From IMG/VR virus record IMGVR_UViG_3300031413_000001: a DNA stretch of 64,000 nt; one strand, written 5' to 3'. Of the stretch, positions 10,953 through 39,235 are shown one piece after another. Position 1 is the first letter of the stretch. Each line of letters starts with the position of its first letter. The notes below the pieces were generated by a model. It did no database searches. It was not told the DNA's origin and saw only the letters and a list, made by a program, of their open reading frames with translations. Position numbers and translations under genes: made by a program. This DNA comes from a virus. Its lineage: Duplodnaviria; Heunggongvirae; Uroviricota; Caudoviricetes.

Positions 10953-11171
10953 GTTCAGAAACTCCGCGAGATAAAGCTGGCTGCATCATACAGCCCAAGC
11001 TGGTTGGCGACATCGTAGAGACGGGCCAGCTGGTCGTTCAGAGCGCCCTGGCTTTGCTTGAAGCGCGGAAGATCTTTTACATCCTCTGCCTTAAACGCCC
11101 GTTCGATCTGCATCCACTGTCTCCTCGTTGCCTATGTTCTGGGTTTAATACCAGAACAATCCTTGTCAACC

Positions 11172-11208
11172 AAGAAAATGGGGTGGACTGCGCTAACAAT
11201 CCACCCCA
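11172..11208 (-). terminator. Intrinsic terminator
   Basis: TGGGGTGGA...TCCACCCCA stem followed by TTTTCTT on the minus strand. Confidence 0.75.
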
Positions 11209-11388
11209 CGATCTTTGTCTTTCTCCAGCTTCGCGGCACACCCCGTCTTGAGCACCCTTACCCGACCGCGTTTACCTCCCGGGACGACAATGATTTTTGT
11301 CTACAACGAGATCGTCACCTTTGGCAGCTGGAGCCTCCAAGCCCAAGACGTTCGGACTTTTTGAAATCGGGGGCACCAAACTTGTTCA
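11175..11388 (-). ncRNA. Candidate pseudoknotted ncRNA (about 210 nt)
   Basis: Dedicated promoter 11393-11419 and terminator, no SD-led ORF, several long-range complementary pairs. Confidence 0.6.
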
Positions 11389-11424
11389 ACCAACTTAGCT
11401 TCTAAAACTCTACTGTCAACCGTC

Positions 11425-11856
11425 TTATGGAACAAAACGCTCCAGGGGCTGGCTTGCAATCTGTTCAGCTTTGGCCTTGCGGAACACCGTTTGCTTGGTG
11501 CCACGCTTTGTCTGATTGGCGTTGATCTTGTAAGTGACAATCCGCGCCGTGCGACCATGCTTGAGCATCGTCATCCACATCAGCTTTAGACCATCGCGTG
11601 ACCACCAGGCGAGAAGCTGCTCCATACTGTCAAAGCCGCAAAACCACTCACGCCGGCCATTGAGCTCCCAGTCGCGTTGCTTGGTCCGGCTCATCTTCAG
11701 GCCCAGCCAAAAGACGCGGAGTTCCTCTTCCTCTTCGGGGCTGGGATGACAGAGCCGATCCTCATTTCCCTCCAGGACTGCGCGGGTAAAGCGATGACCA
11801 AAGCCGGCACTATAAATGCCCTTGCCTTCGTCGCTTTCGATCCTGTAAATGAGCAT
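11425..11856 (-). CDS. Hypothetical protein
   Basis: ATG after SD AGGGAG; promoter 11882-11908. Confidence 0.8.
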   Translation of the reverse strand: MLIYRIESDEGKGIYSAGFGHRFTRAVLEGNEDRLCHPSPEEEEELRVFWLGLKMSRTKQRDWELNGRREWFCGFDSMEQLLAWWSRDGLKLMWMTMLKHGRTARIVTYKINANQTKRGTKQTVFRKAKAEQIASQPLERFVP

Positions 11857-11915: not shown

Positions 11916-12203
11916 TTAGCCCTCGTGGTGATAAGTTTTCACAAGCTTCAGAGCCTGCGTGAGCGTCTTGACGTCACCAACATTCCAATCGTCAACCGAC
12001 CCGCTCGTCAGGACAATTTCCATATCTTCAGTAAAGTCGAAGCGCACAAGAGGAGCAGTCATATTGTAGACTGCAACGTGGCGAGCAACACCGCCTTTGA
12101 CAAAGTAGGAGCGCAGGATAAAGGTCAGCGCGCTACCAACGGTCTTAAAGCTGCGATCGCTGGCGTTACCATACGGGCTGTTTGGCGTTGCGATGATCTG
12201 CAT
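11916..12203 (-). CDS. Hypothetical protein
   Basis: Promoter and SD AGGAG. Confidence 0.8.
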   Translation of the reverse strand: MQIIATPNSPYGNASDRSFKTVGSALTFILRSYFVKGGVARHVAVYNMTAPLVRFDFTEDMEIVLTSGSVDDWNVGDVKTLTQALKLVKTYHHEG

Positions 12204-24810: not shown

Positions 24811-25045
24811 GTATCATGAGGATAGTGAGGATCTGTGTTATCAGACCGTTACCAACCCCTCTAGTGGAAACTTGGTATCGGGTTTTGGTCCTGGGCCCTG
24901 TATGACTCGGTGGTTAGAGGAGCATGGTGGGCGTTATCGCTGCTCCACGGTGTTTGATGCTCAGTATAGTTTCTACCCTGAGGCTCTGGAGATCGAGTTT
25001 CAGGACTCTGCCTGTGCTCTTTTGTTCAAGTTGACTTGGGGTTAA
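24788..25045 (+). CDS. LFKLxW-family protein 1
   Basis: ends FQDSACALLFKLTWG. Confidence 0.85.
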   Translation: MTASVSIEYHEDSEDLCYQTVTNPSSGNLVSGFGPGPCMTRWLEEHGGRYRCSTVFDAQYSFYPEALEIEFQDSACALLFKLTWG

Positions 25046-25068
25046 CTCTTCCTCTATAGAGAGAAAAC

Positions 25069-25290
25069 ATGGAAGTCCGCATCCCTGTTCAGGCCTACAT
25101 GGTAATCGGCACCTATAGTAGTGAGTTGCTTCCCGACATAGAGGAATGGTTTATCAGAAACCGTTTTCACGAGGGTGTTCACTGGTGGTTTGACTTTGAT
25201 TTCAACAGAATTGGGGTGGATTCCCTTGTCTTTGAGAAGCGGAGGATTGCTCAGCTGTTTCACTTGACGTGGTGTACCTTTCCCCTATAG
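25069..25290 (+). CDS. LFKLxW-family protein 2
   Basis: FEKRRIAQLFHLTW. Confidence 0.85.
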   Translation: MEVRIPVQAYMVIGTYSSELLPDIEEWFIRNRFHEGVHWWFDFDFNRIGVDSLVFEKRRIAQLFHLTWCTFPL

Positions 25291-25299
25291 AGCGGAAAC

Positions 25300-25518
25300 A
25301 TGACTGAGTGGCACAACTTCCCTATAGGGATGGAACTTCACATTGCGGTTCAGAACTGGCTACTGGAGCATGTGGGTGCTCAATCGCTATCCAAGCTGGA
25401 CACCACTGGTGAGTGGTTTTGGCGAGTAAACGTTCGCCCTGAGGAACTGGATGACCGCCTGATAGTCAGCATCCGCGACCCCCAGAAGGCCATGCTGTAC
25501 AAGTTGACTTGGGGCTAA
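25300..25518 (+). CDS. LFKLxW-family protein 3
   Basis: IRDPQKAMLYKLTWG. Confidence 0.9.
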   Translation: MTEWHNFPIGMELHIAVQNWLLEHVGAQSLSKLDTTGEWFWRVNVRPEELDDRLIVSIRDPQKAMLYKLTWG

Positions 25519-25541
25519 CTCTTCCTCTATAGAGAGAAAAG

Positions 25542-25793
25542 ATGACCTATAGTGACACCTTCACAGCCAGCGTTCCTCTTGAGAAGGGGTTCTTCACACC
25601 TGCTCTAAAGGGGTGGTTTGTGGCCAATGGTGTGCCCATTGTTGAAGAGGGTTTTCCCGTCATTGGCGAGGGCCTGGGTTGGGACGCTTGGGTAAGTCAA
25701 CGCCCCGTAGAGGGATTGAATAGCGTTCGCTTTCGCTTCAAAGACAAGGGTATCGCCATGTTGTTCAAGCTCACGTGGCATGATTTCCAGTGA
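25542..25793 (+). CDS. LFKLxW-family protein 4
   Basis: FKDKGIAMLFKLTW. Confidence 0.9.
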   Translation: MTYSDTFTASVPLEKGFFTPALKGWFVANGVPIVEEGFPVIGEGLGWDAWVSQRPVEGLNSVRFRFKDKGIAMLFKLTWHDFQ

Positions 25794-26083
25794 GTGAGAT
25801 AGCGGTGTCCTCGGACTTCTTTGAGATCAGGTCCGATCCCCACTATTATGAACTGGACATGGGTTGTGGTATCCATCGTGGACGCCCCTATGTTCGATTG
25901 TGGGATGACCTCTGCACCATCTATGTTCTGCAGGATCCCATGCATCAGTGGTTGGCGGATCGAGATGTCTTCTATGGAATGGACATTGACATAATCAGCG
26001 GCGATTCCCACGTGGACATTCCTGATCAGCGTGCCGCTATGTTGTTCAAGCTGACTTGGTATGGGGTCATTGATGCGGCGTAG
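25790..26083 (+). CDS. LFKLxW-family protein 5
   Basis: IPDQRAAMLFKLTW. Confidence 0.9.
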   Translation: MSEIAVSSDFFEIRSDPHYYELDMGCGIHRGRPYVRLWDDLCTIYVLQDPMHQWLADRDVFYGMDIDIISGDSHVDIPDQRAAMLFKLTWYGVIDAA

Positions 26084-26312
26084 AAAGTTTAGATACCGTG
26101 TACTGATTCCCTTTGAGTCATACCATGGGGAGAGGAATGGCATCTGGGACTGGCTTGAGGCGACCGTTGGGCGGGTCCTAAGTGAGCAGAATCCCTATGG
26201 TCAGTGGACTGGTGGGTTCTCCAAGGACGAGGTCCTTGGAGTTGAATCCTATGAGTTCACCTTTGAAGATCGGAGAACTGCCATACTGTTCAAGCTACTT
26301 TGGGACCACTGA
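26073..26312 (+). CDS. LFKLxW-family protein 6
   Basis: FEDRRTAILFKLLW. Confidence 0.9.
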   Translation: MRRRKFRYRVLIPFESYHGERNGIWDWLEATVGRVLSEQNPYGQWTGGFSKDEVLGVESYEFTFEDRRTAILFKLLWDH

Positions 26313-26578
26313 TGCACAACGTTCACCTGATAGTCAAAGAAGACCACTACGATCCCTCGGGTCCTGGGGTTGTGTGGTGGAATCTGGCCAGCGACTACAA
26401 TGAGGGCTATCGTGCAACCGATGGCTTTTGGGAGTGGATCAACCAACAAGGCGTTGAGGTCGATGAGTGGGATATCATTCAGGACTACGACGATGGCAAT
26501 GATGTGGTGCCCGGCCAGGTGGTCTTCGCGTTCAAGGATCCCGTGATTGCCCTACTGTTCAAGCTAACTTGGGGATGA
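26312..26578 (+). CDS. LFKLxW-family protein 7
   Basis: FKDPVIALLFKLTWG. Confidence 0.9.
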   Translation: MHNVHLIVKEDHYDPSGPGVVWWNLASDYNEGYRATDGFWEWINQQGVEVDEWDIIQDYDDGNDVVPGQVVFAFKDPVIALLFKLTWG

Positions 26579-26796
26579 GCAGCAGCTATAAGGCTCATCA
26601 TGATCACCACGAGATTTGGATCATGAATGGTGTGAGCAAGATGACGCCAGAGATCCGTGCGTGGCTTGATGAGTTCGCGGGCAAAAAGTGGCTGGGCAGT
26701 ATGGGTGCTGGATCTATGAATGGCAATCGGGTAGGCATGATGCATAACTTTTCCTGCAAGGAAACTGCCATGCTCTTTAAATTGACGTGGGGATAA
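26575..26796 (+). CDS. LFKLxW-family protein 8
   Basis: FSCKETAMLFKLTWG. Confidence 0.9.
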   Translation: MSSSYKAHHDHHEIWIMNGVSKMTPEIRAWLDEFAGKKWLGSMGAGSMNGNRVGMMHNFSCKETAMLFKLTWG

Positions 26797-26817
26797 GTCC
26801 ACTCCTATAGTGAGTCT

Positions 26818-27099
26818 ATGTATGAACTCTCGATCATGCTCCCAGGAGCACTTGGAAATTACAATCGCCGACACACTCCTCTTCCCCGAGGATTGGAGTG
26901 GGGAAAGCCCCGAGGATACCAGATAGTTCCAACTGATGAGCTATGCGAGTGGCTTACTTCTTTTACCCGTAGCCACGCTACCATTGAGTTGCTTCATAGA
27001 AACTCCAGTGTTTGGGAGCCTCACCGAGAAGTCATTGGAGTTTCCTTTGGTTTCCTGGAAGCCTCTGATGCCCTCCTGTTTAAGTTGACCTGGTTATGA
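26818..27099 (+). CDS. LFKLxW-family protein 9
   Basis: FLEASDALLFKLTWL. Confidence 0.9.
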   Translation: MYELSIMLPGALGNYNRRHTPLPRGLEWGKPRGYQIVPTDELCEWLTSFTRSHATIELLHRNSSVWEPHREVIGVSFGFLEASDALLFKLTWL

Positions 27100-27335
27100 T
27101 TGGTGTGGAAGTCAGTAACGATCTGATTAAGATGGCAAAGGATGATCTCCACTACGTTCTAAGGGATGATGTGGTCAATTGGCTGCATGTTCATGCAGGG
27201 ACTGGAGATTGTAGGGGAGGGTGGTCTCCTGATTGCGATTGGCTCTGGACCTACAAGAGCGTGGACTACCGAGGGGCAGCCGTGGTGTTCAGTGATGCCA
27301 AGGCCGCCATGTTGTTCAAGTTGACTTGGGTATAG
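27096..27335 (+). CDS. LFKLxW-family protein 10
   Basis: FSDAKAAMLFKLTWV; shares GGWSxxCxWxW with member 14. Confidence 0.9.
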   Translation: MIGVEVSNDLIKMAKDDLHYVLRDDVVNWLHVHAGTGDCRGGWSPDCDWLWTYKSVDYRGAAVVFSDAKAAMLFKLTWV

Positions 27336-27356
27336 TTCTGCTCTATAGAGGGGAAG

Positions 27357-27617
27357 ATGGCTAGACGGCGTCCTCAAACTTCCTGGCTGGTAAGCATTCC
27401 CAGCAGCATCATGCCAAGTACGTGGGCCAATATGAATGGCGATCTCGATTGGGAGATCGACCTGTGGTTTGAGGAACTGGGTCTTGAGTGGCGACGTGAT
27501 TGGTGGATGGCTATGAACCCCTCCTACCGTCACGACCTGGCATTTCAGGATCGCCGGACTGCCCAACTGATTTTTCTTCTCGTGGAAAGCAGGGCTGATG
27601 AAAATACAAGTTCATGA
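27357..27617 (+). CDS. LFKLxW-family protein 11 (degenerate motif)
   Basis: FQDRRTAQLIFLL. Confidence 0.75.
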   Translation: MARRRPQTSWLVSIPSSIMPSTWANMNGDLDWEIDLWFEELGLEWRRDWWMAMNPSYRHDLAFQDRRTAQLIFLLVESRADENTSS

Positions 27618-27909
27618 CATTGGTATCCCCTGGTGGCCCTGGAACTACCGCTATCGAGTGACGGCCATTGGAAAGCCCAAGGTGGATGCCCCCGCGTTGG
27701 GCTATGACAACAACCTCTTTGATCTACAGGATAGGCTGGGCTGGGAACCCAACTACGATTATCTTCGTCCAGATATTCGGAACTGGCTCCATGATAGCTT
27801 GAACTACATGGACTGGACCACCGAGCATCCCAATGATGCTGGCGAGGAGTGTGGGATCCTTTTCCGGCGTCGTAAAGACGTGATGATGTTCAAGCTGGCT
27901 TGGGGCTAA
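27598..27909 (+). CDS. LFKLxW-family protein 12
   Basis: FRRRKDVMMFKLAWG. Confidence 0.9.
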   Translation: MKIQVHDIGIPWWPWNYRYRVTAIGKPKVDAPALGYDNNLFDLQDRLGWEPNYDYLRPDIRNWLHDSLNYMDWTTEHPNDAGEECGILFRRRKDVMMFKLAWG

Positions 27910-28187
27910 TGGATATCGTAGCACATCGTCGTGAGTGCGATAGGCTACTAAAAGCCGGTATCAGAGTGGCGATCGCACCCCAGCATATAATCAATGGTTT
28001 CAATCAGATATCTGAAGAACTGATCCAGTGGCTTCTTGAACGTGGTTACACCACTGGTGGCATCACGCCTGATCCATATAGGATCTGGGCAGGAAGCCGA
28101 CCCAATGCTCGAGAGCCCAACGCTGCGGTAATATTTCATCCCAGTCAAGCACAGGATGCACTCTTGTTTAAGTTGACCTGGGGATGA
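27909..28187 (+). CDS. LFKLxW-family protein 13
   Basis: DALLFKLTWG. Confidence 0.9.
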   Translation: MDIVAHRRECDRLLKAGIRVAIAPQHIINGFNQISEELIQWLLERGYTTGGITPDPYRIWAGSRPNAREPNAAVIFHPSQAQDALLFKLTWG

Positions 28188-28438
28188 ATAGCGTGGTTCC
28201 TATTCCCGACAGCCTCCTATATAGGGACACTCATCCCTACAGTAGTGGATGGTGGATTCGCCAAGACATCTTTCAGTGGTTGACCACCTTTGTGGGACGT
28301 GGAAATCAAGCTGGTGGTTGGTCCGGGGAGTGTGAGTGGATCTGGGTTTACGCATTCGTTGATGGGCAACCCACCAACAATGCAATATCCTTCCAGGATC
28401 CCAAAGCTGCCATGTTGTTCAAACTCACATGGGCGTAG
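28184..28438 (+). CDS. LFKLxW-family protein 14
   Basis: FQDPKAAMLFKLTWA. Confidence 0.9.
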   Translation: MNSVVPIPDSLLYRDTHPYSSGWWIRQDIFQWLTTFVGRGNQAGGWSGECEWIWVYAFVDGQPTNNAISFQDPKAAMLFKLTWA

Positions 28439-28662
28439 AATACAACATCATACTCAGCGACAAGGTTGCCTATAGGGAACACCACTGTACGGAAAGTCCC
28501 TGGGGAAGTTATCAGATATTCAACCCCGAGATAGCCGAATGGCTAGATGCCCGACTCGCTCCCAACAAGTGGGACCACGACATTGACTTTGACACACAGA
28601 ACTGTATCGTGACCATAGAGGACAAGGATGTGGCACTGTTGTTCAAGTTGACCTGGGTATGA
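28429..28662 (+). CDS. LFKLxW-family protein 15
   Basis: IEDKDVALLFKLTWV. Confidence 0.9.
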   Translation: MGVEYNIILSDKVAYREHHCTESPWGSYQIFNPEIAEWLDARLAPNKWDHDIDFDTQNCIVTIEDKDVALLFKLTWV

Positions 28663-29027
28663 TTGAGTGGACGTTCGTGCAGCTCTATGGCCTCCGGTAT
28701 TTTTCCCGGCAAGGTTTTAGCTCAGCCACTTCACCAGTTCATCGCTGGCGACCTGATGGTCGACCGGCAACCTTTGGCGTCGCCATTGCCGACCATGTGT
28801 TCGAGTGGCTAGATGCCAATTGCAAGGGTAGGTGGTACCACGTAACCAATCGTCAATTCACCACCATTGAACAGATAACTGTTACCCGCGATGATCAGGA
28901 AGAGCTTCGCTTGGCTCGCAAACTCAATCTCGTGACTGATGAGATGCGTGACAAGTTCCGCAGCATCCGCGAGATTGCCTTTGAATTGAAGAGCGACGCG
29001 CTCATGTTCAAGCTGAGTATTGCCTGA
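28659..29027 (+). CDS. LFKLxW-family protein 16
   Basis: FELKSDALMFKLSI. Confidence 0.85.
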   Translation: MIEWTFVQLYGLRYFSRQGFSSATSPVHRWRPDGRPATFGVAIADHVFEWLDANCKGRWYHVTNRQFTTIEQITVTRDDQEELRLARKLNLVTDEMRDKFRSIREIAFELKSDALMFKLSIA

Positions 29028-29257
29028 TGGGCATTCGTGTTCACTGTGATCTTTCAAAAGCCTGCGAGTGGCTTGAGGCAAGAAATCGACGGGGTGGGTA
29101 TTGGAAAGTTCGCCCCGAAGTTCTTGACTTCATGGATAGTCGAGGGATTCCTTTTCGATCCAATGCCAGCCTCAGTGAGCAGGACTGGTCAGTGGTATTT
29201 CCCGATGAGTTTGCCAGGGATGCCATGTTGTTCAAACTAACGTGGGGTGGAAAGTGA
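29027..29257 (+). CDS. LFKLxW-family protein 17
   Basis: DAMLFKLTWGG. Confidence 0.9.
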   Translation: MGIRVHCDLSKACEWLEARNRRGGYWKVRPEVLDFMDSRGIPFRSNASLSEQDWSVVFPDEFARDAMLFKLTWGGK

Positions 29258-29514
29258 GCGACCTGTGGGGCGACACGCTGAGCAAGAGCATGGAGTGGTA
29301 CAACTCCTGCACGTTTGTCCGCGTTCCAACAACTAGCTTGAATGATGCTCTTTCCTGGTGCGTGGAAAAGAAGGGCCTGAGCGGCCACGATCGACTGTAT
29401 AGTGAGGACAGAGTTGGTTGGGGTTGGACTTCTGGTCCAACCAGCGACGTGTGGGTCTTTTACTTTCAGAACGATCCTGATTTTGCCATGCTGTTCAAAT
29501 TGACTTGGGCGTGA
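29254..29514 (+). CDS. LFKLxW-family protein 18
   Basis: FAMLFKLTWA. Confidence 0.9.
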   Translation: MSDLWGDTLSKSMEWYNSCTFVRVPTTSLNDALSWCVEKKGLSGHDRLYSEDRVGWGWTSGPTSDVWVFYFQNDPDFAMLFKLTWA

Positions 29515-29534
29515 ATACTCTATAGGGAGGATTA

Positions 29535-29834
29535 ATGATCACCTTTCCTCTCACCGACAAACAGATCTACAGCCTGTCTGAGGACACCTCAAATCCTTGG
29601 GTAGCGGTCCTGGATGCGATGAAGACCTGGGCCAAGGAGATGAATCTTCAGTATATCCCCAGTGGATCCACGTTGAAAGAATTGCCTCCTGGGCATTGGT
29701 GTGTGAAAAGCTACAATTACGACCAGAGGCGACGTGAAGGTGGCGGTGGCATCTGGAATCACCGGATGATCTGCTTCAACGATGCGGATGCCAAACACGC
29801 CATGATATTCAAACTTCGTTGGGGCGGGCAGTGA
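29535..29834 (+). CDS. LFKLxW-family protein 19
   Basis: HAMIFKLRWGG. Confidence 0.9.
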   Translation: MITFPLTDKQIYSLSEDTSNPWVAVLDAMKTWAKEMNLQYIPSGSTLKELPPGHWCVKSYNYDQRRREGGGGIWNHRMICFNDADAKHAMIFKLRWGGQ

Positions 29835-30115
29835 AGCAGCAAGTCTTTTGGGTTCCCAGCGATATAGACCTCCCAAAGGTAACTGTCGTGACACTCCACG
29901 ATCCCAGTGGTGAGAAGATTGCCGATTCAGTCATGTGGGCAGGAGAGCGCCTGGGACCCAGCAACGGCAACGGTGGGGATATCAGAGGCAAGAACTGGGA
30001 CTTCACCCCTGGATGGCTGGCGCAGTTTGGTAGCAAGGATCTACATTTTTACTTTGGTGACGAAGTGGATCGTGATACCATCGTCTTGTTCAAACTTACA
30101 TTTGGTGGTCGATGA
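29831..30115 (+). CDS. LFKLxW-family protein 20
   Basis: IVLFKLTFGG. Confidence 0.9.
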   Translation: MKQQVFWVPSDIDLPKVTVVTLHDPSGEKIADSVMWAGERLGPSNGNGGDIRGKNWDFTPGWLAQFGSKDLHFYFGDEVDRDTIVLFKLTFGGR

Positions 30116-30426
30116 CTAGCGCGACTGTTGAGCTGCCCTGGGAGCGACTGGTTGATTGGGGGATGGGAATCACCCTAAAGCAGGAAGTCCTGGACTGGCT
30201 CCAGGCAAACATTGGCCTGGGTGATAGTCGTTGGTGGAACAGTGTTGTGGAATTGGTCTTTCACCTTGACCACTGCGAGAACGATGGGCCGGGTTGTATC
30301 TCCTCAGGAGAGCAATGCGTGGGTCATGAGGACTGGGGCTGGTCGATCGGTACAAGGAGTGGGAAAGGCTTCTTTGTGTTCCGGGATCCTGCCCACGCGG
30401 TCATGTTCAAGTTGACTTGGGCATGA
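30112..30426 (+). CDS. LFKLxW-family protein 21
   Basis: KGFFVFRDPAHAVMFKLTWA. Confidence 0.9.
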   Translation: MTSATVELPWERLVDWGMGITLKQEVLDWLQANIGLGDSRWWNSVVELVFHLDHCENDGPGCISSGEQCVGHEDWGWSIGTRSGKGFFVFRDPAHAVMFKLTWA

Positions 30427-30656
30427 GGGAAGTTGAACTATCGCTGGAGCGCCTTCGCGAGATCAACGAAGAGATCAACAAGGTAAAGGCAGTTCAGACC
30501 TATCTGATAGAGTGGTGCGTGGAACATGTCAAGGAACGACCTATCAGCACCATCGTGAGCAAGCCCGCAGTTTATAATAGTGTGGAGTTTAGGGGAATCA
30601 TGTTTGAGTTCCGTGAGCCCCAAAATGCCATGATGTTCAAATTGAGGTGGGCATAA
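30423..30656 (+). CDS. LFKLxW-family protein 22
   Basis: FREPQNAMMFKLRWA. Confidence 0.9.
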   Translation: MREVELSLERLREINEEINKVKAVQTYLIEWCVEHVKERPISTIVSKPAVYNSVEFRGIMFEFREPQNAMMFKLRWA

Positions 30657-30892
30657 TGCCCTTGATGTCAGTGGTCATGCAAACTCATCCCGTAATCGTC
30701 AGTATGCCCATGGATCAGAGCGACGATCACTGGATTGAAATAGATGATTGGATCTCCAGCAAAAACCTTGATGTCATTTGGAGTTCCAACGTGGACACCT
30801 CGGGTATCGCACCATTTCCATTCCTGCGCCACTTCTGTTTTAAGACGGAAGACCGGGAGGCAGCCATGCTGTTCAAACTTACATGGCTATAA
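30656..30892 (+). CDS. LFKLxW-family protein 23
   Basis: AAMLFKLTWL. Confidence 0.9.
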   Translation: MPLMSVVMQTHPVIVSMPMDQSDDHWIEIDDWISSKNLDVIWSSNVDTSGIAPFPFLRHFCFKTEDREAAMLFKLTWL

Positions 30893-31101
30893 CTGTGGAA
30901 ATCTCCGATCGCGGAGATTGGAATACCGTCTATAGGGAAGCATCCAATTGGATGGTGGACCACTTTCCAGATCTTTGCCTTCCAGTCACAGATCCCAAGC
31001 GGGTCTATAATGGTTGGGACGTGTCTTTTGGTCTTGACACCATACAGTTCTATTTTGAAGATCCTCAGGTTGCTATGTTGTTCAAGTTGACTTTTGCCTA
31101 A
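30883..31101 (+). CDS. LFKLxW-family protein 24
   Basis: FEDPQVAMLFKLTFA. Confidence 0.9.
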   Translation: MAITVEISDRGDWNTVYREASNWMVDHFPDLCLPVTDPKRVYNGWDVSFGLDTIQFYFEDPQVAMLFKLTFA

Positions 31102-31121
31102 CCTGGCTTTACGATACAGGT

Positions 31122-31430
31122 ATGGAAACGCACCACTCCTGGAAATCCTTTATCGCCCAGGGGCGAGCATGGCGTGCCGTGGCCGAGTGGTCCAGTGAGT
31201 TCTTTGATCGAATTGAAGACGAGCAATATGACGACTATGATGTCTATCCCCTGAGGGAAGATGTCAGAGCATGGTTGGATAAGTTGCCTCGTGGTCGATG
31301 GTGGGTTGAAAGTCCCGATGGCACTGGTCTCATAGACATCACGGGCCCACGATGGATGCGTCCCATCTACTTTCGTTTTCGTCGAGACCTAATGCTGTTC
31401 AAGTTGAGGTGGGACCATGGTGCGAAATAA
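31122..31430 (+). CDS. LFKLxW-family protein 25
   Basis: DLMLFKLRW. Confidence 0.9.
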   Translation: METHHSWKSFIAQGRAWRAVAEWSSEFFDRIEDEQYDDYDVYPLREDVRAWLDKLPRGRWWVESPDGTGLIDITGPRWMRPIYFRFRRDLMLFKLRWDHGAK

Positions 31431-31641
31431 AGACTTTCCCAACAAGGTAACCATCCGGCTTCACCGCTTGGAGTTTCAGGCTCTTCTAGCTTGGCTTCAT
31501 GCAGCTGGGCATGAGTTGCGCGTCACGATGAAGTTTGGTGACAACCAGCACAAGAGCGCGGATCCTGACCACCTTCAGCAGGACATCTTGTTCAAAGATC
31601 GAAAGGACGCCATGTTGTTCAAGCTGGCGTGGTATCGATGA
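31417..31641 (+). CDS. LFKLxW-family protein 26
   Basis: FKDRKDAMLFKLAW. Confidence 0.9.
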   Translation: MVRNKDFPNKVTIRLHRLEFQALLAWLHAAGHELRVTMKFGDNQHKSADPDHLQQDILFKDRKDAMLFKLAWYR

Positions 31642-31901
31642 TTCAGTTCATTATCAAAGATTACCACGTGTGGGGAAACCGCAACGAGGAACTCGCACCA
31701 CCACGTCTCCCCTATGAGGTCCAGGATTGGCTCAACGATAGCGGGATCACGGAGTATGGATTGGAGTGGAAGCACAATGAAAAGGCTTCCCTGGGAAAGC
31801 ACCAAAAGGCACAGGTGTTTGAGACCCACATCCTCTTTTACAAGAACAGCGATGGTATGATTTTCAAGCTTCGATGGTACCACCACATACAAAATGCTTG
31901 A
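31638..31901 (+). CDS. LFKLxW-family protein 27
   Basis: DGMIFKLRW. Confidence 0.9.
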   Translation: MIQFIIKDYHVWGNRNEELAPPRLPYEVQDWLNDSGITEYGLEWKHNEKASLGKHQKAQVFETHILFYKNSDGMIFKLRWYHHIQNA

Positions 31902-31906
31902 GCACA

Positions 31907-32197
31907 ATGGGCACAACCTTTACTCTACCACACAAAATTGACAGTATAACCAGGGATGGCTGGCTTTGGTACAGCCATGATCATTTTAATCCGCCGACTG
32001 ATCGCCTATGCGTGAGCAGTGCCCATATCATAAAGCCCAAGAGTATCGGCCTGGCGCCCTGGTACTTTTTAAGCGATGATGCCCTGTTGGTTCTTGGATC
32101 GAGTGCATATCAACTCCGGTGCAGCTTCTATGATCATTGGCACTTGACCATTGATGATCGAAGCCGAGCGGCTCTTTTCAAGTTGAAGTTTCTATGA
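31907..32197 (+). CDS. LFKLxW-family protein 28
   Basis: IDDRSRAALFKLKF. Confidence 0.85.
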   Translation: MGTTFTLPHKIDSITRDGWLWYSHDHFNPPTDRLCVSSAHIIKPKSIGLAPWYFLSDDALLVLGSSAYQLRCSFYDHWHLTIDDRSRAALFKLKFL

Positions 32198-32218
32198 CAG
32201 TTTTTTACCGGTCATTGC

Positions 32219-32470
32219 GTGATGATGCCTGTTCCTAATCCAGATAGCCAGGAACACCGCGGGACATGGCTTGACGAGATCTATGCCTGGCTTGCAACCA
32301 TCGAGGGTGACTATGACCTAATGCTGGTCCGAACGGGTGCCATCTTGACTAAAGAGGATGTTCTCTCTGGCAGCAAGATGGGTCTTAGGACGATTGACGA
32401 GCACATCATTTGGTTCTTTGCAGAAATGCGGGACGCCCAGCTGTTTAAGATGAGGTGGGCCAGTGAATAA
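32219..32470 (+). CDS. LFKLxW-family protein 29
   Basis: DAQLFKMRW. Confidence 0.85.
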   Translation: MMMPVPNPDSQEHRGTWLDEIYAWLATIEGDYDLMLVRTGAILTKEDVLSGSKMGLRTIDEHIIWFFAEMRDAQLFKMRWASE

Positions 32471-32747
32471 TCCCGGCGTCTTTGATGACGAAGACGAGAA
32501 CGGATGGTCTTGCGCCAACATTGCCAACCAATGCGTGTGGTCCGTCGTGGATGAAAACGGCTTTCGTATCAAATCCCTGCATCTCAGGGAAGACGTCTTG
32601 AGCTGGCTCATAGAACACGTTGGCCCCAAGAACACCATGAGGGAGATTGGAATGTGGAGAAACGACATTCCACTGCTGGTTACCGACACCAACTTCTACT
32701 TCAAAGATCCCAACAAGGCACTCTTGTTCAAGTTGACTTGGGGCTAG
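32463..32747 (+). CDS. LFKLxW-family protein 30
   Basis: FKDPNKALLFKLTWG. Confidence 0.9.
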   Translation: MNNPGVFDDEDENGWSCANIANQCVWSVVDENGFRIKSLHLREDVLSWLIEHVGPKNTMREIGMWRNDIPLLVTDTNFYFKDPNKALLFKLTWG

Positions 32748-32765
32748 AGACTGCTAGGACGTGGC

Positions 32766-33050
32766 ATGGAATTTGAGGTCACAATCAACGTACCATACAG
32801 CAATGACCGGGTGTGTCGGTACATTGAATGGAAAGAGTACCTGAGGACCAACCACAGCGCCACAAAGTTTCCCGATGGATATGAAATCCGCGATGAAGTG
32901 TGGGACTGGTGCGAGGAAAACCTGCAGGGCTACTGGCGACAGTGGAACAACAATTTACCCAAGGGTGATCCAGCACGTGGTCGGATCATTGGCTTCTCGG
33001 ATGCCAACGCGGCCATGCTATTCAAGCTTCGCTGGTGTGGGAGCATCTAA
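32766..33050 (+). CDS. LFKLxW-family protein 31
   Basis: FSDANAAMLFKLRW. Confidence 0.9.
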   Translation: MEFEVTINVPYSNDRVCRYIEWKEYLRTNHSATKFPDGYEIRDEVWDWCEENLQGYWRQWNNNLPKGDPARGRIIGFSDANAAMLFKLRWCGSI

Positions 33051-33286
33051 TGCCCAACGCCTATATTCGCATGATCCAAGCCGACTATCCCCACGAGGTT
33101 GGTCTTCCAGAGTATGACATGACGCTTGAGGCAAGGGCGGATGCCTGGCTTCACATGAACGCCGTTGATTACATGGATTACTTTCAAGAAGTTGGCGACC
33201 TCAGGGTATATTGTTTCCGGGAGGCTTCATGGGCGACCATGTTCAAGTTGAGCTTTTATGGCCTGAACTCTTCGGAGAACCCGTGA
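33050..33286 (+). CDS. LFKLxW-family protein 32
   Basis: FREASWATMFKLSF. Confidence 0.85.
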   Translation: MPNAYIRMIQADYPHEVGLPEYDMTLEARADAWLHMNAVDYMDYFQEVGDLRVYCFREASWATMFKLSFYGLNSSENP

Positions 33287-33564
33287 ATTACGAGGTAGCA
33301 GTCCACTTTGCCAACAACGGTGTCTTTGGTCCCAAGCGACTCAAGACCCGTCTTCTAACCGAAAAAGTAGAACGGTGGCTAGACGCCCATGGTGGTGATT
33401 GGGGGCTGGTAAATTGGTATCGTCCCTATGTAGGTCATGGGGAATTTGGTCCCGAGCCGGGCATGGAGCACGTGGGGCGGATATTTCAGTTCGGAGAGCG
33501 CCGCACTGCCCAGTTGTTTCTTTTATGTTGGAATGCTTCAGGACACGCCAAAGAAGCTTCATAG
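33283..33564 (+). CDS. LFKLxW-family protein 33
   Basis: FGERRTAQLFLLCW. Confidence 0.8.
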   Translation: MNYEVAVHFANNGVFGPKRLKTRLLTEKVERWLDAHGGDWGLVNWYRPYVGHGEFGPEPGMEHVGRIFQFGERRTAQLFLLCWNASGHAKEAS

Positions 33565-33810
33565 ATACCAATTTAAGTAAAACCGCTGTGCGGCACTGCG
33601 ATTTTGAAAATATACGCAGAAACGATCCTGCTGCACTATTAGAAGATAATCCCATCCACGAATGCCATAAGAGAGCAGCACCTCTGTCAGCTGATCTACC
33701 AATATGTCTCTTTGGGATAGGTTGTGGAAGAAGTGACCACGAAAGCTGTAGGGCAGTTCCATGTAGTGGCTGAAGTAGTATTCAAGCCTGCGGTCTAGAT
33801 ACTGAAACAT
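33559..33810 (-). CDS. LFKLxW-family protein 34 (divergent)
   Basis: FQNRSAAQRFYLNW. Confidence 0.75.
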   Translation of the reverse strand: MFQYLDRRLEYYFSHYMELPYSFRGHFFHNLSQRDILVDQLTEVLLSYGIRGWDYLLIVQQDRFCVYFQNRSAAQRFYLNWYL

Positions 33811-34025
33811 AGTTTGAAATATACAGCCTTACTCAAGTCTGTAAACCACACTTCATAGATTCCAGTCTCAAAACTCTCACGACCAACAATCCAGTCCTCA
33901 TATTCCTGCCATTTTTGTTCCAAGAGCCAGAGGCGAACTTGGTAATGGTGCATGGAACTCTTGACCATAGGCAACTGCACCCTGATCGATCTGGTTTGCC
34001 GGGGATATTCAAAAAGGTCATCCAC
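33795..34025 (-). CDS. LFKLxW-family protein 35
   Basis: FTDLSKAVYFKLCF. Confidence 0.85.
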   Translation of the reverse strand: MDDLFEYPRQTRSIRVQLPMVKSSMHHYQVRLWLLEQKWQEYEDWIVGRESFETGIYEVWFTDLSKAVYFKLCFSI

Positions 34026-34029
34026 AGCC

Positions 34030-34060
34030 TATTTAATGGGTGGAAAATCTCCTTAAATAT
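34030..34060. promoter_or_regulatory. Back-to-back late promoters
   Basis: TAAATA on minus (34030-34035) and plus (34054-34059). Confidence 0.6.
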
Positions 34061-34085
34061 TCTGTACCCCAAAAGGAGATCGATC

Positions 34086-34526
34086 ATGACCCAGCTTACA
34101 CCGCATTTTAGTTTGGCCGAGATGACCGTTACCGGAACGGGTATCAAGAATGTTCCCAACGCCGCGCAGTTGGCAAACTTGACTCACACTGCTCAGATGA
34201 TGGAAAAGGTCCGTGCAATTCTTGGCACACCAATCAGCGTCAATAGTGGCTTCCGTTGTGATGCAGTAAACCGTGCCGTTGGTGGCGTGGTAACTTCCGC
34301 TCACAGCTTTGGCTTTGGTGTTGACTTCGTGAGCCCTGACTTTGGAACGCCCTATGAGGTTTGTGCCGCGCTGATCAAGGGTGGTCTAAAGTTCGACCAG
34401 CTCATTCACGAAAAGCGCCGTTGGGTCCACATTGGCTTTGGTCTCAAGGGAGGCATCAGCCACCGTCAGCAGGTCTTGACTCTTCCACCAGCAGGCGGCC
34501 GTTACCTGCCTGGTCTGGTCAAGTAA
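34086..34526 (+). CDS. Peptidase M15 family (Zn D-Ala-D-Ala-peptidase fold) endolysin
   Basis: HFSLAEM, SGFRC..VNRAVGG, SAH-x4-VD, FDQLIHE..WVHI; SD AGGAG. Confidence 0.9.
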   Translation: MTQLTPHFSLAEMTVTGTGIKNVPNAAQLANLTHTAQMMEKVRAILGTPISVNSGFRCDAVNRAVGGVVTSAHSFGFGVDFVSPDFGTPYEVCAALIKGGLKFDQLIHEKRRWVHIGFGLKGGISHRQQVLTLPPAGGRYLPGLVK

Positions 34527-34952
34527 TTACTTCGTAGTTTTTTCGGGAGGCTGAAGGGACCAAGTGCCCTTCAGCTTTCTACTCTTGGCCTTGACGAGCG
34601 TTCTCGTAATACCAAACGCCACTGGCGGAACCTCTGGCTTCTTTGCGCCACCCCATGCCAGCTTGAACATCGTGACATTCTTCATATCACGAAACCAGAT
34701 CTTAGCTTGCCTTCCAACCGCGAAGTCGCTGGCTTGTCCACACTTTTCCAGCTTGTAACGGCCTCCACTTTCCTGGAGCCAATCCCTTATGGGTTTTGCC
34801 CAGCGGTATTCCTCGAAGCCACCAGTCCATCGTGCGCTCGAGACATCACCCTGATTGAGCTTTCGCTGATAGAACTCTTCCAGCCATTCTCCCTGAACAC
34901 TGATATAGGGAAGTCCCAGCCATTTGCGCCACTTGACTTCTTCAATCAGCAT
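34527..34952 (-). CDS. LFKLxW-family protein 36 with capsid-like C-terminal tail
   Basis: VTMFKLAWGG then FGITRTLVKAKSRKLKGTWSL. Confidence 0.85.
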   Translation of the reverse strand: MLIEEVKWRKWLGLPYISVQGEWLEEFYQRKLNQGDVSSARWTGGFEEYRWAKPIRDWLQESGGRYKLEKCGQASDFAVGRQAKIWFRDMKNVTMFKLAWGGAKKPEVPPVAFGITRTLVKAKSRKLKGTWSLQPPEKTTK

Positions 34953-35232
34953 TCTGTCCTCCAAAGGTCAGCTTGAACAACATGGCCAGGTTGTCGTTTT
35001 CTTTGATCAAAAAGAAAGCGCGAAAGCTGCTGGGGTTGACGTATGCGTCCCAAAGCACGTCTTCCATATAGATACGAGTAGCATCAAAGGCCACATCGCC
35101 ATGTTCGTTGGTACGGGGCTTGCTTTTCCATCCGGGCTCACCCAGACGCTCTGCGAGCCATCGGCCAGCGCGATCTATGCACTCGGCGTTGACTGGCACC
35201 TCAATGGTGTGAATGGTAGCTTCTAGATCCAT
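34942..35232 (-). CDS. LFKLxW-family protein 37
   Basis: LAMLFKLTFGG. Confidence 0.9.
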   Translation of the reverse strand: MDLEATIHTIEVPVNAECIDRAGRWLAERLGEPGWKSKPRTNEHGDVAFDATRIYMEDVLWDAYVNPSSFRAFFLIKENDNLAMLFKLTFGGQNAD

Positions 35233-35507
35233 GTCAGCTTGTATAGCACGGCAGCTTTGGAATCATAGAGTCGAATCATAAGCCTCCAGGAATAGACTTG
35301 TTCGCCATACTGACTGAGATCCGTGGAGGCATGAACAAACCTGCCATTGTAGGAGAAGTTGTGCTGGTCTAGCCAGTCCTTCATTTCCTGATCGAATAAA
35401 CGACTGGCATCATCCTCAGCCCGCCAACTGAGATCCCGATAGAGCTTTTTATTAGGAAGCGGAAAATCCCAATAGCTAGGCCCAGGTGAGTTTGAACAAC
35501 ATTGCAT
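35223..35507 (-). CDS. LFKLxW-family protein 38 (start uncertain)
   Basis: LYDSKAAVLYKLTWI. Confidence 0.8.
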   Translation of the reverse strand: MQCCSNSPGPSYWDFPLPNKKLYRDLSWRAEDDASRLFDQEMKDWLDQHNFSYNGRFVHASTDLSQYGEQVYSWRLMIRLYDSKAAVLYKLTWI

Positions 35508-35724
35508 CGGAAACTCTCTTAAAGTGAAATTCCAAACTTGTCATCCCATAATCTTCGAACATCCAACATTCGCCATGTTCCCAGTCCACACCCCATGCGC
35601 CAATGTTTTCTTGGATCCAGTCCCAGCACTCGTCCGAGAGACTGTCGTCGAAGCCGTGTTCATCTATAATGCAGACGCGGCTCTTGGGTATCACGACCCG
35701 AACGCCGTCAAGCCTCCTCGCCAT
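35476..35724 (-). CDS. LFKLxW-family protein 39
   Basis: FKRVSDAMLFKLTWA. Confidence 0.9.
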   Translation of the reverse strand: MARRLDGVRVVIPKSRVCIIDEHGFDDSLSDECWDWIQENIGAWGVDWEHGECWMFEDYGMTSLEFHFKRVSDAMLFKLTWA

Positions 35725-36073
35725 CGCCCACCTGTGGAATTGCACTCGTGATCGTCAGTGGAATATAGGGGCAGTAAAAGGCCGTGATCTCCGGCATCAC
35801 TACTATCTGGATATCGGCGTGATCGTGCCAGGCTAACTTGAACAATTGAAAGACACTGGGGTCCTCAATCCAGATAGCCCTGCCTTTATCCATCCATGCC
35901 GTTCCCCATCGACCGGGACAGGTGTTGTCCATCCATTCGGCAAGAAAAGGTAAGATGCGGGGATTGGCACGAATATGCGTGGGCACTTCAGCATCAATGG
36001 CTTCCCAGGCAAAGAACATTTCTCCATCGCTGGGAACAATATACCACTGATGATGTTTCTCGATGAGTTTCAT
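35708..36073 (-). CDS. LFKLxW-family protein 40 with capsid-like C-terminal tail
   Basis: FQLFKLAW then TAFYCPYIPL. Confidence 0.85.
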   Translation of the reverse strand: MKLIEKHHQWYIVPSDGEMFFAWEAIDAEVPTHIRANPRILPFLAEWMDNTCPGRWGTAWMDKGRAIWIEDPSVFQLFKLAWHDHADIQIVVMPEITAFYCPYIPLTITSAIPQVGDGEEA

Positions 36074-36510
36074 CAGCCGCACGCCAACTTAAACATCACC
36101 GCGTGTTCCTTGCTGTAGAAGGTCCACGTACACTCATAGACCGCAGAGGGAACAGGTTGAAGCTGTGGTATTGGATATCCATTACTGGAGTAATGTTGGG
36201 GCGAGTAATTGTTATAGTTGATTCCTGTTTGAAGACTTCCAACCAGATGAGCGTGTTCTCGAACCTGGGTGTTGTATTCCTCAATCTTCATGATATCCCT
36301 GAGATTATCCTGATATTCAGGCTCAACGGATCTCAGATGACGAAGGCAATCATTCTCGCCCATCCACCGAAATGCCGTGAGGAGTTTTTCCTCGCCGGGG
36401 ATCATAACATCAAAGATTGTGCCATCGTCATTCTGAAATGTGAAGCGGCTACGAGTTGCTGCTTTCAACGGACCAGAGAATTTAACGTCGAAGTGTTCCA
36501 GGATACGCAT
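36073..36510 (-). CDS. LFKLxW-family protein 41
   Basis: FYSKEHAVMFKLACG. Confidence 0.85.
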   Translation of the reverse strand: MRILEHFDVKFSGPLKAATRSRFTFQNDDGTIFDVMIPGEEKLLTAFRWMGENDCLRHLRSVEPEYQDNLRDIMKIEEYNTQVREHAHLVGSLQTGINYNNYSPQHYSSNGYPIPQLQPVPSAVYECTWTFYSKEHAVMFKLACG

Positions 36511-36525
36511 TAACCCATTATGGGG

Positions 36526-36759
36526 TCAGCGGCCTCCAAAAGTCAATTTGAACAAGACAGCCGTGGCATTATCGGGAAGGTTGAACATCACCTGCCATCG
36601 ACTGTGATCGCGACCCAACATCCAGGTGACTTTGTCACTGACTGGCGGTGCGTTGTCGGCAAGCCAGTCCATGATGTCTGGATTGACGTGGACCTTCACC
36701 GATCCATTGCTTGAAGAATGGGCACAGGTCTTAAAGGGCAGAACGACGTTGACGCTCAT
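36526..36759 (-). CDS. LFKLxW-family protein 42
   Basis: TAVLFKLTFGG. Confidence 0.9.
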   Translation of the reverse strand: MSVNVVLPFKTCAHSSSNGSVKVHVNPDIMDWLADNAPPVSDKVTWMLGRDHSRWQVMFNLPDNATAVLFKLTFGGR

Positions 36760-37091
36760 GACCAAGTCAGCTTGAATAACATGGCGTGTTGCTTTTCCCG
36801 GAATACCAGTATCGCTCCAAGATCTGGACTATTGCCCACTTTATAGCCAGGAGCATATTGTTCCATCCAGGGATAAAGCTCACTGGCACGCCACTTGCTA
36901 TCAAAATGATCTCGGAAAAGCTGCTGGAGGTTTTCCTGTGGGCTGTTGCGGGCTTCCTGATCTTTTCGGGTAAGACGTTCCTCAGGGGTCTCGCGACCGC
37001 GCAGAACAAAGGAATTCTCAGGAATACACTTCTCGACGATTACTTTGAGTGGATTACCGCAATCCCAGACCATTTTATAGCTAGTCTGCAA
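36756..37091 (-). CDS. LFKLxW-family protein 43
   Basis: FREKQHAMLFKLTWS. Confidence 0.9.
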   Translation of the reverse strand: MQTSYKMVWDCGNPLKVIVEKCIPENSFVLRGRETPEERLTRKDQEARNSPQENLQQLFRDHFDSKWRASELYPWMEQYAPGYKVGNSPDLGAILVFREKQHAMLFKLTWS

Positions 37092-37359
37092 TCAACTTGC
37101 TCCTGATCTCCGCAGTCCGCTGGGAGATAAGGTCGATCATCTTCATGGTGACCTGTACGTCGTTGTCCACCAGCCACCGGAGATCGTCCTCGTGGCTCTT
37201 TTCCAGATGACGGTGCATTGCTTCAATGCCTTCTGGCGGAGGACCCATTCGAGCGCAGACCTGATCGGCCAGCTGATGAAAGAGCTCCGCTCGCTTGATG
37301 ATCGAGACGTAAAAGAGATTTCGCATCACACGCTGGTCGGCCACTACAATCCTCCCCAA
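37081..37359 (-). CDS. Hypothetical helical protein inside the array (no motif)
   Basis: Fills the gap between members 43 and 44. Confidence 0.6.
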   Translation of the reverse strand: MGRIVVADQRVMRNLFYVSIIKRAELFHQLADQVCARMGPPPEGIEAMHRHLEKSHEDDLRWLVDNDVQVTMKMIDLISQRTAEIRSKLIAD

Positions 37360-37598
37360 GTCAGTTTGAATAACATGACCTTATCCAGATCACAACCCTC
37401 TAGAAATGATATCATCACGCTATCTGTGCTGTCGTTGAATCCCCACACGGTGTTCATGGACACCACAGTTGCCAGCGGTTCGGCTGTGACATCATAGAGC
37501 TTTCGCTCCACTCCATCATCGTCCTTGACTAGCTTCCAGGGAAACCTATCTGTGGGTATGAAGATGGTTGTGATGATCACATTATCCCGAATAGTCAT
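37344..37598 (-). CDS. LFKLxW-family protein 44
   Basis: VMLFKLTWGG. Confidence 0.9.
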   Translation of the reverse strand: MTIRDNVIITTIFIPTDRFPWKLVKDDDGVERKLYDVTAEPLATVVSMNTVWGFNDSTDSVMISFLEGCDLDKVMLFKLTWGGL

Positions 37599-37882
37599 CG
37601 ACCACCCCATGCAAGTTTGAACATCATCGCCTTCGCGGGGTCTTTGAACTTGAAGTGAAGGAATTTTGCCGGACCGTTCTGGCGATCACCAGTTGCCAGA
37701 TACATGGGATCAATAGAACTCTCGCTGGCCCTCAGATAAAAGGCAGCTTTCCGGCTCCATGTATAATCCGTCATATCGCTGGCCTGTTGGCCTACATTCT
37801 GCACCAGCCAGTCGTGCATGACGAGGCGGAGGCCGTAGCCATCCCAAATCTCATCATTGACCTTGATGCAGATGTGCGTCAC
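37595..37882 (-). CDS. LFKLxW-family protein 45
   Basis: FKDPAKAMMFKLAWGG. Confidence 0.9.
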   Translation of the reverse strand: MTHICIKVNDEIWDGYGLRLVMHDWLVQNVGQQASDMTDYTWSRKAAFYLRASESSIDPMYLATGDRQNGPAKFLHFKFKDPAKAMMFKLAWGGR

Positions 37883-38160
37883 CGACCACCCCAAGAAAGT
37901 TTGCAGAGCATGGCATGACTGGGTCGATAGAAGAAGATAAAGAGACCCTTGTTATCCTCATCCTTGGTGGTGGTCCAAAGAATACCCAGCGGTCCGGCCG
38001 TGTCGTGTAGCCACTTTTGAAAGTCGGCGGTTGGATTGCGATGCCGTATGTAGCTGAATCCTTTGGACGTGGAAACATTCACACTCTCAAATGCCGGACT
38101 GTCATAGGATATGAATACCCTATGGCCCTGTTCAACAAGTGGATCCGCTAGACGTTTCAT
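37879..38160 (-). CDS. LFKLxW-family protein 46
   Basis: KGLFIFFYRPSHAMLCKLSWGG. Confidence 0.9.
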   Translation of the reverse strand: MKRLADPLVEQGHRVFISYDSPAFESVNVSTSKGFSYIRHRNPTADFQKWLHDTAGPLGILWTTTKDEDNKGLFIFFYRPSHAMLCKLSWGGR

Positions 38161-38167
38161 AGAACCG

Positions 38168-38194
38168 TGTTAGCACCAGAACTTCCAGTGTCAA
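38168..38194 (-). promoter_or_regulatory. Early-type promoter, near-leaderless
   Basis: TTGACA-ctggaagttctggtg-CTAACA, 7 nt before ATG. Confidence 0.8.
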
Positions 38195-38195
38195 G

Positions 38196-38486
38196 CTATT
38201 TGAATGTGAGCTTGAACATCAGAGCGTGGTTTCTATCTTCAAAGCAATAGCAGATGTATTTGTTACTGGTCACCGCATTGTGGTACCAACTCCCCTCCTC
38301 GGGGGATTCTGGATCACGAAAATAGAAGCTGTTGTACTGGTCATCACCAACGTTGTTGGCAACCAGCCACTCATCAATGTCATCACGAAGAACCTGAGTG
38401 CTCTCACACCAGATGCTGCCAGGCAATTTCAGATATACGATGTGATAGTTGTCCTCGCCATTGGACTCTTCTGACAAATTGAACAT
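38196..38486 (-). CDS. LFKLxW-family protein 47
   Basis: FEDRNHALMFKLTF. Confidence 0.9.
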   Translation of the reverse strand: MFNLSEESNGEDNYHIVYLKLPGSIWCESTQVLRDDIDEWLVANNVGDDQYNSFYFRDPESPEEGSWYHNAVTSNKYICYCFEDRNHALMFKLTFK

Positions 38487-38520
38487 CGCTCCTCCTACCT
38501 TTTGGGTAGCAGGAGTGCTT

Positions 38521-38814
38521 TCAAAAGTTCAATTTATAAAACCACAACAATTTGAACAACGCTGCTTCATTGCGATTACGAAACGCAAACGTGTAAGCGG
38601 TTGTTTTCCTTGGATACGTCTGGTATTTGTTCTTCTGATCCAAGAAGAAACCATCTTCATACTGGTGTACAAACCAATCAGTGGATTGGGGACCATCATC
38701 ATATAACCAATTGATGGAGTCAATCAGACGATCATATATGGGATCCTCGTGCCAGACACCAGGCACGGTCACGTGGTAGGGGAGAGCAGCCAATCGCTGC
38801 TGGGCATTCTTCAT
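38521..38814 (-). CDS. LFKLxW-family protein 48
   Basis: FRNRNEAALFKLLW. Confidence 0.9.
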   Translation of the reverse strand: MKNAQQRLAALPYHVTVPGVWHEDPIYDRLIDSINWLYDDGPQSTDWFVHQYEDGFFLDQKNKYQTYPRKTTAYTFAFRNRNEAALFKLLWFYKLNF

Positions 38815-39029
38815 CCCCATACCAACTTGAAGGCAACGGCCTTTCGAGCATCATCAAAGATAAACCGCCAACCTAATGGATCACCACCGGGCTTATCACA
38901 GATGATCTCCAGCGAGTAATCAAAATTCTTATTCCAGCTTTGATCAGTCAGCCACTGGAATAATTCAAAATCATTACCTTCGCGGGGGTAGATATCAACG
39001 ATCTTGCAGAATGGATACTCGGTACTCAC
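38811..39029 (-). CDS. LFKLxW-family protein 49
   Basis: FDDARKAVAFKLVWG. Confidence 0.9.
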   Translation of the reverse strand: MSTEYPFCKIVDIYPREGNDFELFQWLTDQSWNKNFDYSLEIICDKPGGDPLGWRFIFDDARKAVAFKLVWG

Positions 39030-39235
39030 ATGCCACCCAGTGTGAGTTTGACGATCAGGGCCTTGTTGGCATCGTGAAACCAGAAGCTAAGATAGTCCAG
39101 CTTTCCGCCGTGCATGTCAATCTGCCAGTCACGTTCCGCTTTGAGCTTGTTTTCATGCAGCCAGTCGATCGAATTGTCGCCATAGGGATCCTTGGCCCAG
39201 CTGATCTTTACCTCGTAGATGAATTGCTTTCTCAC
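39026..39235 (-). CDS. LFKLxW-family protein 50
   Basis: FHDANKALIVKLTLGG. Confidence 0.85.
   Translation of the reverse strand: MRKQFIYEVKISWAKDPYGDNSIDWLHENKLKAERDWQIDMHGGKLDYLSFWFHDANKALIVKLTLGGM

Follow-up and report, generated by a model that had tools for sequence, protein, structure and literature searches.

The interval 11172-11419 on the minus strand of the window (the whole stretch of 64,000 nucleotides of phage DNA analysed here) is very probably a stand-alone gene for a structured non-coding RNA of about 210 nt. The source is an uncultured jumbo phage, and the gene lies in its early-gene region. Twelve distinct homologs, which share 59-84% identity with the window copy, were aligned, and the predicted core consists of about ten helices in about 160 nt, with P1, PK1 and PK2 crossing a nested backbone. 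By its sequence, the RNA appears to represent a family of its own, with a new fold, among the stand-alone, ornate phage ncRNAs, a kind already known. To our knowledge, structured phage RNAs that stand alone are few, and a function has been assigned to almost none of them. The sequence-only reading of this DNA had already proposed a pseudoknotted, stand-alone, unrecognised RNA, with an Rfam search and a covariation analysis of collected homologs as checks; the proposal is upheld by the 12 homologs, by their covarying fold and by the lack of an Rfam match for the window copy and nine homologs.

The promoter of the gene was not scored by a generic sigma70 scan but has the same form as the other early promoters of the phage, and transcription is predicted from it to start at about 11385. 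In each of the 12 homologs the motif TTGAC-N17-TA precedes the first helix by 11-16 nt, and the leader before P1 is just 5-10 nt long. At the other end, a G+C-rich hairpin of variable sequence stands directly 3' of the core, again in 12 of 12 homologs. The next promoter, whose -35 is at 11169 in the window, just past the terminator, comes immediately after this hairpin in 11 of the 12 loci; the genes downstream of it differ among phages. A minus-strand promoter and terminator with no SD-led ORF between them had been read from the sequence alone, and both elements are indeed present at the positions then given and kept in the homologs. The second part of that claim was likewise confirmed, as neither an SD-led nor a conserved ORF was found inside the RNA, and the longest ORFs of the region vary in frame, length and sequence from one homolog to the next. 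A near-identical 417-kb contig in IMG/VR (G002) carries no substitution relative to the window in 11151-11444, against 46 over the surrounding 2347-nt region.

In 12 of 12 homologs, the Y00F gene precedes the RNA, either immediately or with one gene in between. An obligate partnership with this gene was rejected, as Y00F is also found without the RNA, and so was one with the downstream 52/87-aa gene, for the same reason. The early invariant R and E of the Y00F/phrog_1106 protein and its CGF-S/Q block presumably recall an ADP-ribosyltransferase-like core. The surroundings form a row of small early genes, many of them in cassettes led by promoters of the TTGAC-N17-TA form. A CTGG/CCAG inverted repeat is often embedded around the -10 of the early promoters (e.g. 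window 11136-11157), at homologous loci too. Elsewhere, in window 25031-39825, many genes have a copy of the repeated element TTGTTCAAG-TTGACT in front of them, apparently a second class of promoter or operator.

Table 1. Features of the RNA gene and predicted helices of its core, in window coordinates.
Feature	Position	Strand	Remarks
Early promoter	11392..11419	-	-35 TTGACA 11419-11414, 16-nt spacer, -10 TAAGTT 11397-11392
Conserved structured RNA core, ~160 nt	11217..11377	-	12 distinct homologs, alignment A8, pair counts
Intrinsic terminator-like hairpin and U tract	11172..11209	-	14 pairs at 11209-11178, then U tract
Upstream neighbour, 143-aa gene, T4 Y00F / phrog_1106 family	11425..11856	-	Synteny marker
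P1	11377-11371 with 11257-11251 (7 bp) and 11370-11368 with 11264-11262	-	Crosses P3 and P5
P2 hairpin, inner stem	11359-11353 with 11345-11339	-	95% paired, 2 pairs changed on both sides
P2 outer segment, irregular	11366-11363 with 11338-11335	-	Folds in most homologs; weaker
PK1	P2 loop 11349-11346 with 3' tail 11220-11217	-	Covaries
P3	11333-11327 with 11229-11223	-	5 of 7 pairs changed on both sides
P3b	11325-11323 with 11276-11274	-	Invariant G-U then C-G; coupled double change in 2 homologs
P4, variable stem	~11319-11311 with 11291-11282	-	Folds in 11 of 12 homologs, differing sequences
PK2	P4 loop 11309-11305 with 11247-11243	-	93% paired, one-sided changes only
P5	11270-11265 with 11237-11232	-	100% paired over 5 bp

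The fold was evaluated on a MAFFT alignment of 12 sequences (A8), in which 37 pairs could be placed. In total, 96.8% of 438 cells are paired, compared with 30-42% in the slid-alignment controls. Changes on both sides were observed in 12 of the 37 pairs and in 34 cells, counts of which either was reached in at most 1 of 500 shuffles, and that of the cells in 0 of 500; these shuffle counts are not probabilities, because the 12 sequences are related and the shuffles ignore kinship. The compensatory swaps recur across several helices and lineages. Folding of the window copy alone gave a whole-region z-score of -2.2, which is suggestive only.

From 5' to 3', the strands run as follows: the 5' strand of P1, the P2 hairpin, the 5' strand of P3, an invariant U, P3b, the P4 hairpin and the 3' strand of P3b; then NAA, the 5' strand of P5, the 3' strands of P1 and PK2, a variable linker and the 3' strand of P5; finally AA, the 3' strand of P3, AAA, the 3' strand of PK1 and the terminator. 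P1 is 100% paired across the 12 homologs, with three pairs changed on both sides, and its first pair is G-U in 11 of them and G-C in the other. The outer segment of P2, which is probably real as judged from the alignment, accommodates a 27-nt hairpin insertion in one homolog (L178). PK1 occurs as GUC/GAC and GAUC/GAUC types and in longer versions, of 7 bp in one case, and it shows two-sided changes in 8 cells, a count reached in 3 of 500 shuffles. In P3, an invariant U and an invariant A may form an eighth pair, and P5 shows two G-C to A-U swaps, in three sequences each. PK2 and P3b are likely but not proven, because they are conserved without a clean two-sided change; the PK2 pairing is a plausible one. 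The invariant bases concentrate at the P3/P3b/P5 junction, and the homolog alignment contains no long conserved single strand of the kind expected of a guide or antisense segment.

This fold differs in part from the pairings first drawn on the window copy, in which at least three Watson-Crick stems of at least 7 bp are present, a number found in 2% of 2000 dinucleotide shuffles. The 8-bp stem 11333-11326/11230-11223 is conserved and covaries in the 12 homologs, and corresponds to P3. The other three can all be formed by the window copy but do not hold as parts of the real fold: 11350-11341/11253-11244 (10 bp, one G-U) is 74% paired with no compensatory change, the 7-bp stem 11315-11309/11214-11208 is not kept in homologs, and the outer stem is lost in them. 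These three of the four stems are alternative pairings, replaced by P1, P2, P4, P5 and PK1, which covary, and by P3b and PK2, which are conserved.

The source phage is a distant relative of Sinorhizobium phage Phosso and Agrobacterium phage Atu_ph07, with clamp-loader protein identities of 56% and 50%, respectively. Its host is likely an alphaproteobacterium, because these are its nearest cultured phages and because T at -7 is often missing from its promoters (present in 20 of 78 TTGAC-N17-TA sites of G002). GcrA, sought as a host marker, is absent. The tRNA clusters of G002, G003, G004 and G011 hold 55-62 tRNA genes per genome, with the RNA gene located away from the tRNA cluster of the phage. 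Their tRNA-His has the standard G-1:C73 form, which we take to speak against a rhizobial or caulobacter host and to fit a sphingomonad or other host. In each of the four genomes, at least two tRNAs were called with a CUA anticodon.

Relatives were gathered through the clamp loader and the upstream Y00F-family gene, and then searched by BLAST and with a covariance model. There is a single copy of the RNA per genome. It is absent from a complete, terminally repeated relative (G004) and from the DNA after Y00F at four further loci (L163, L166, L172, L174), which are fragments, so that it could sit elsewhere in those phages. In the Y00F tree, the loci lacking the RNA are interspersed among the carriers. 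At L163 and L166 the Y00F stop runs straight into the downstream promoter and the RNA is cleanly missing; because of these junctions, promoter, RNA and terminator can be regarded as one cassette bounded by the repeated -35 element, at which it may have been gained or lost by recombination. The RNA gene is thus accessory. Comparison of the gene content of the carriers with that of G004, which is confounded by kinship, gave no convincing co-inherited partner.

Within the searches made, the RNA is confined to one uncultured jumbo-phage clade. BLAST found no homolog among cultured phages or plasmids. A metagenome scan made before the consensus was available, with the stems first proposed, returned the near-identical phage and chance matches alone. 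Consensus patterns gave nothing outside the clade after profile screening, either in IMG/VR, among the matches listed, or in 185,579 prokaryote genomes. The RNA model had no match in Phosso, Atu_ph07, UE-S1, RsoM2USA, Paride, XacN1, SCTP-2 and other jumbo contigs, and nothing was found with it in 121 genomes sampled from the class to which a Devosia genome belongs, a search run without a positive control in which 23 candidates were scored per genome listed.

The related genomes contain other candidate RNAs and leaders. At G002:256648-256860 (+) (L415), a promoter and a terminator again delimit a cassette, of about 180 nt and with no SD-led ORF; this second one is a candidate ncRNA whose body has no homolog in G003, G004 or G011. 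In the same way, G003:27610-27822 (-) (L380) runs from promoter to terminator over about 180 nt with no SD-led ORF and is a candidate for a second ncRNA family; similar sequences are found near G011:210678 and G004:348116 (nhmmer E 3e-66 and 2e-9, with a query that includes the next gene). Two 5' leaders were also observed. The one at G003:363030-363259 (-) (L397), upstream of a homolog of window gene 11916-12203, has 140 nt closed by a long inverted repeat and ends just before the ribosome-binding site; the other, G002:115480-115739 (-) (L408), is a G+C-rich leader of about 150 nt after a promoter, with several hairpins and weak similarity in G004.

We then compared the RNA with known families. 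Rfam 15 gave no match anywhere in the window, nor for the RNA core of the window copy and nine homologs at E <= 10, and no description of the RNA was found in the literature searched, in which subscription papers were largely out of reach. The manA RNA (RF01745) resembles it in being phage-borne, compact and of comparable size (192 model positions), and was rejected with 0 matches at E <= 10 in G001/G002, including the genome with an identical copy. The raiA motif, compared by description, is likewise a stand-alone RNA of about 200 nt with a compact two-pseudoknot core. In raiA, however, P1 closes the 5' with the 3' end and a conserved UUAGA(C/A)GUAA linker is present (PMC12968392), whereas the phage RNA has a P1 that closes in mid-molecule and a P2 loop paired to the 3' end, and it lacks the linker; topology, linker and lack of an Rfam match led to its rejection. 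GOLLD, ROOL and OLE are, like the phage RNA, free-standing, elaborately paired and pseudoknotted ncRNAs with no function assigned, and two of them, GOLLD and ROOL, are also phage- and prophage-borne (PMC12286853). They are, however, much larger, GOLLD being often >800 nt and often near tRNA islands (PMC12286853), in contrast to a core of about 160 nt in the early region with no similarity at the Rfam level.

Other assignments were discarded as well. The antitoxin mimic suggested in the sequence-only reading fails, since the RNA is present in single copy per genome and lacks the tandem short pseudoknot repeats of a Type III (ToxI-like) antitoxin, no repeat units being visible in the alignment. 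A tRNA or tmRNA mimic was dismissed, as ARAGORN finds none in the window and there is no conserved ORF for a tag. A template RNA of a retron or DRT was set aside because no cognate reverse transcriptase was found: RVT_1 (PF00078) had no match in five carrier or sister genomes, a search that a very divergent enzyme could escape. Likenesses to RNase P P4, group I P7, twister and the cobalamin, TPP and ykkC riboswitches are short words in the wrong pairing order, with no Rfam support.

Considering what the RNA might do, four other explanations were weighed. That there is no RNA gene at all, and that the region is instead a small ORF, a DNA element or an intergenic spacer with chance stems, is barely credible: the modest folding score of the single sequence would suit it, but the many G-U pairs in the covariation point to RNA, promoter and hairpin stand on either side in all homologs, and the ORFs are inconsistent among them. 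Also very improbable is a cis-acting, riboswitch-like leader or attenuator for the downstream genes. The aptamer-like size, the invariant junction and the terminator directly after the core are what such an element would have; however, the downstream genes vary between phages and, at 11 of 12 loci, have a promoter of their own that adjoins the hairpin, a conserved antiterminator is not apparent, and the RNA can be cleanly deleted with that promoter left intact.

A new ribozyme class would be an expanded, HDV-like nested double pseudoknot, which might remove its 5' leader by cutting at the first G of P1, or might act on another RNA, e.g. the many tRNA precursors of the phage. The HDV layout has the helix order P1, P2, P3, P1.1, and the strand order P1, P3, P3b-P4, PK2 of the phage RNA corresponds to it. 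A 7-bp P1a opening with G-U or G-C, the very short leader and the wealth of tRNA genes in the genomes also favour a ribozyme, which had been among the first suggestions. The HDV-like strand order thus stood, but the HDV type itself did not. HDV-like ribozymes require a C at the start of J4/2, where a C-to-U change inactivates them (PMC10879173), and the equivalent linker here is AA in 12 of 12 sequences; the nearest pyrimidine, C in nine and U in three, is paired and covaries with its P5 partner. Because the catalytic C is missing, the RNA is not a member of the HDV-like family. It further differs from the HDV-like and theta ribozymes in lacking the HDV P4 hairpin and an adjacent tRNA (ARAGORN finds none in the window), in having the additional long-range P5 and PK1, and in being twice the size. 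With no Rfam ribozyme match either, a ribozyme, including one of other chemistry, is unlikely. The same holds for a self-assembling RNA like manA, ROOL and GOLLD, in which PK1, PK2 or both would form between molecules and yield an oligomer or a cage. In RNAs of <200 nt, kissing loops do drive cage formation (bioRxiv 10.64898/2026.07.01.735769), one pairing of GOLLD that covariation had revealed turned out to be intermolecular (PMC12286853), and PK1 spans a long distance with a 3-nt linker. On the other side, neither manA nor another Rfam family matches, the density of crossings is also achievable within one molecule, and assembly by itself is no function.

The leading explanation, tentative and short of probable, takes up the decoy of the first suggestions: a stable early transcript would sequester a host protein or signal molecule, as a decoy or sponge. 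It is put forward because of the early accessory context, the patchy presence, the conservation in wobble-rich helices and one junction, and the exclusion of alternatives. As a decoy, the RNA would be transcribed early in infection by the host RNA polymerase from the sigma70-type promoter, and would fold into a compact body, expected to be nuclease-resistant because of the pairing of nearly all bases, of short A-rich linkers, and of ends tied by P1, PK1 and the terminator. It would then act in trans, by its shape, binding a factor of the host; an RNA-binding protein of defence or regulation would be the most likely target, and a nucleotide signal a possible one. The binding surface may be formed by the invariant P3/P3b/P5 junction together with the wobble-rich P1 and P2 helices, and the RNA would help the phage in some hosts without being essential. 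The invariant junction bases would suit a catalytic pocket, a ligand pocket or tertiary packing equally well. It is doubtful, though conceivable, that this densely pseudoknotted product of an early jumbo-phage gene is either a new ribozyme class or an RNA-only anti-defence sponge neutralising a host factor or signal.

Confinement to one uncultured clade narrows the reach of the finding and makes in vivo work hard. Nevertheless, its small size, its placed ends, the covariation-backed model and 12 natural variants make the RNA ready for synthesis and testing. Should it prove catalytic, it would define a new class of ribozymes built on an enlarged HDV-like topology. Should it act as a decoy or sponge, the protein sponges of phages would have an equivalent made of RNA, which would point to a host defence or regulatory factor.
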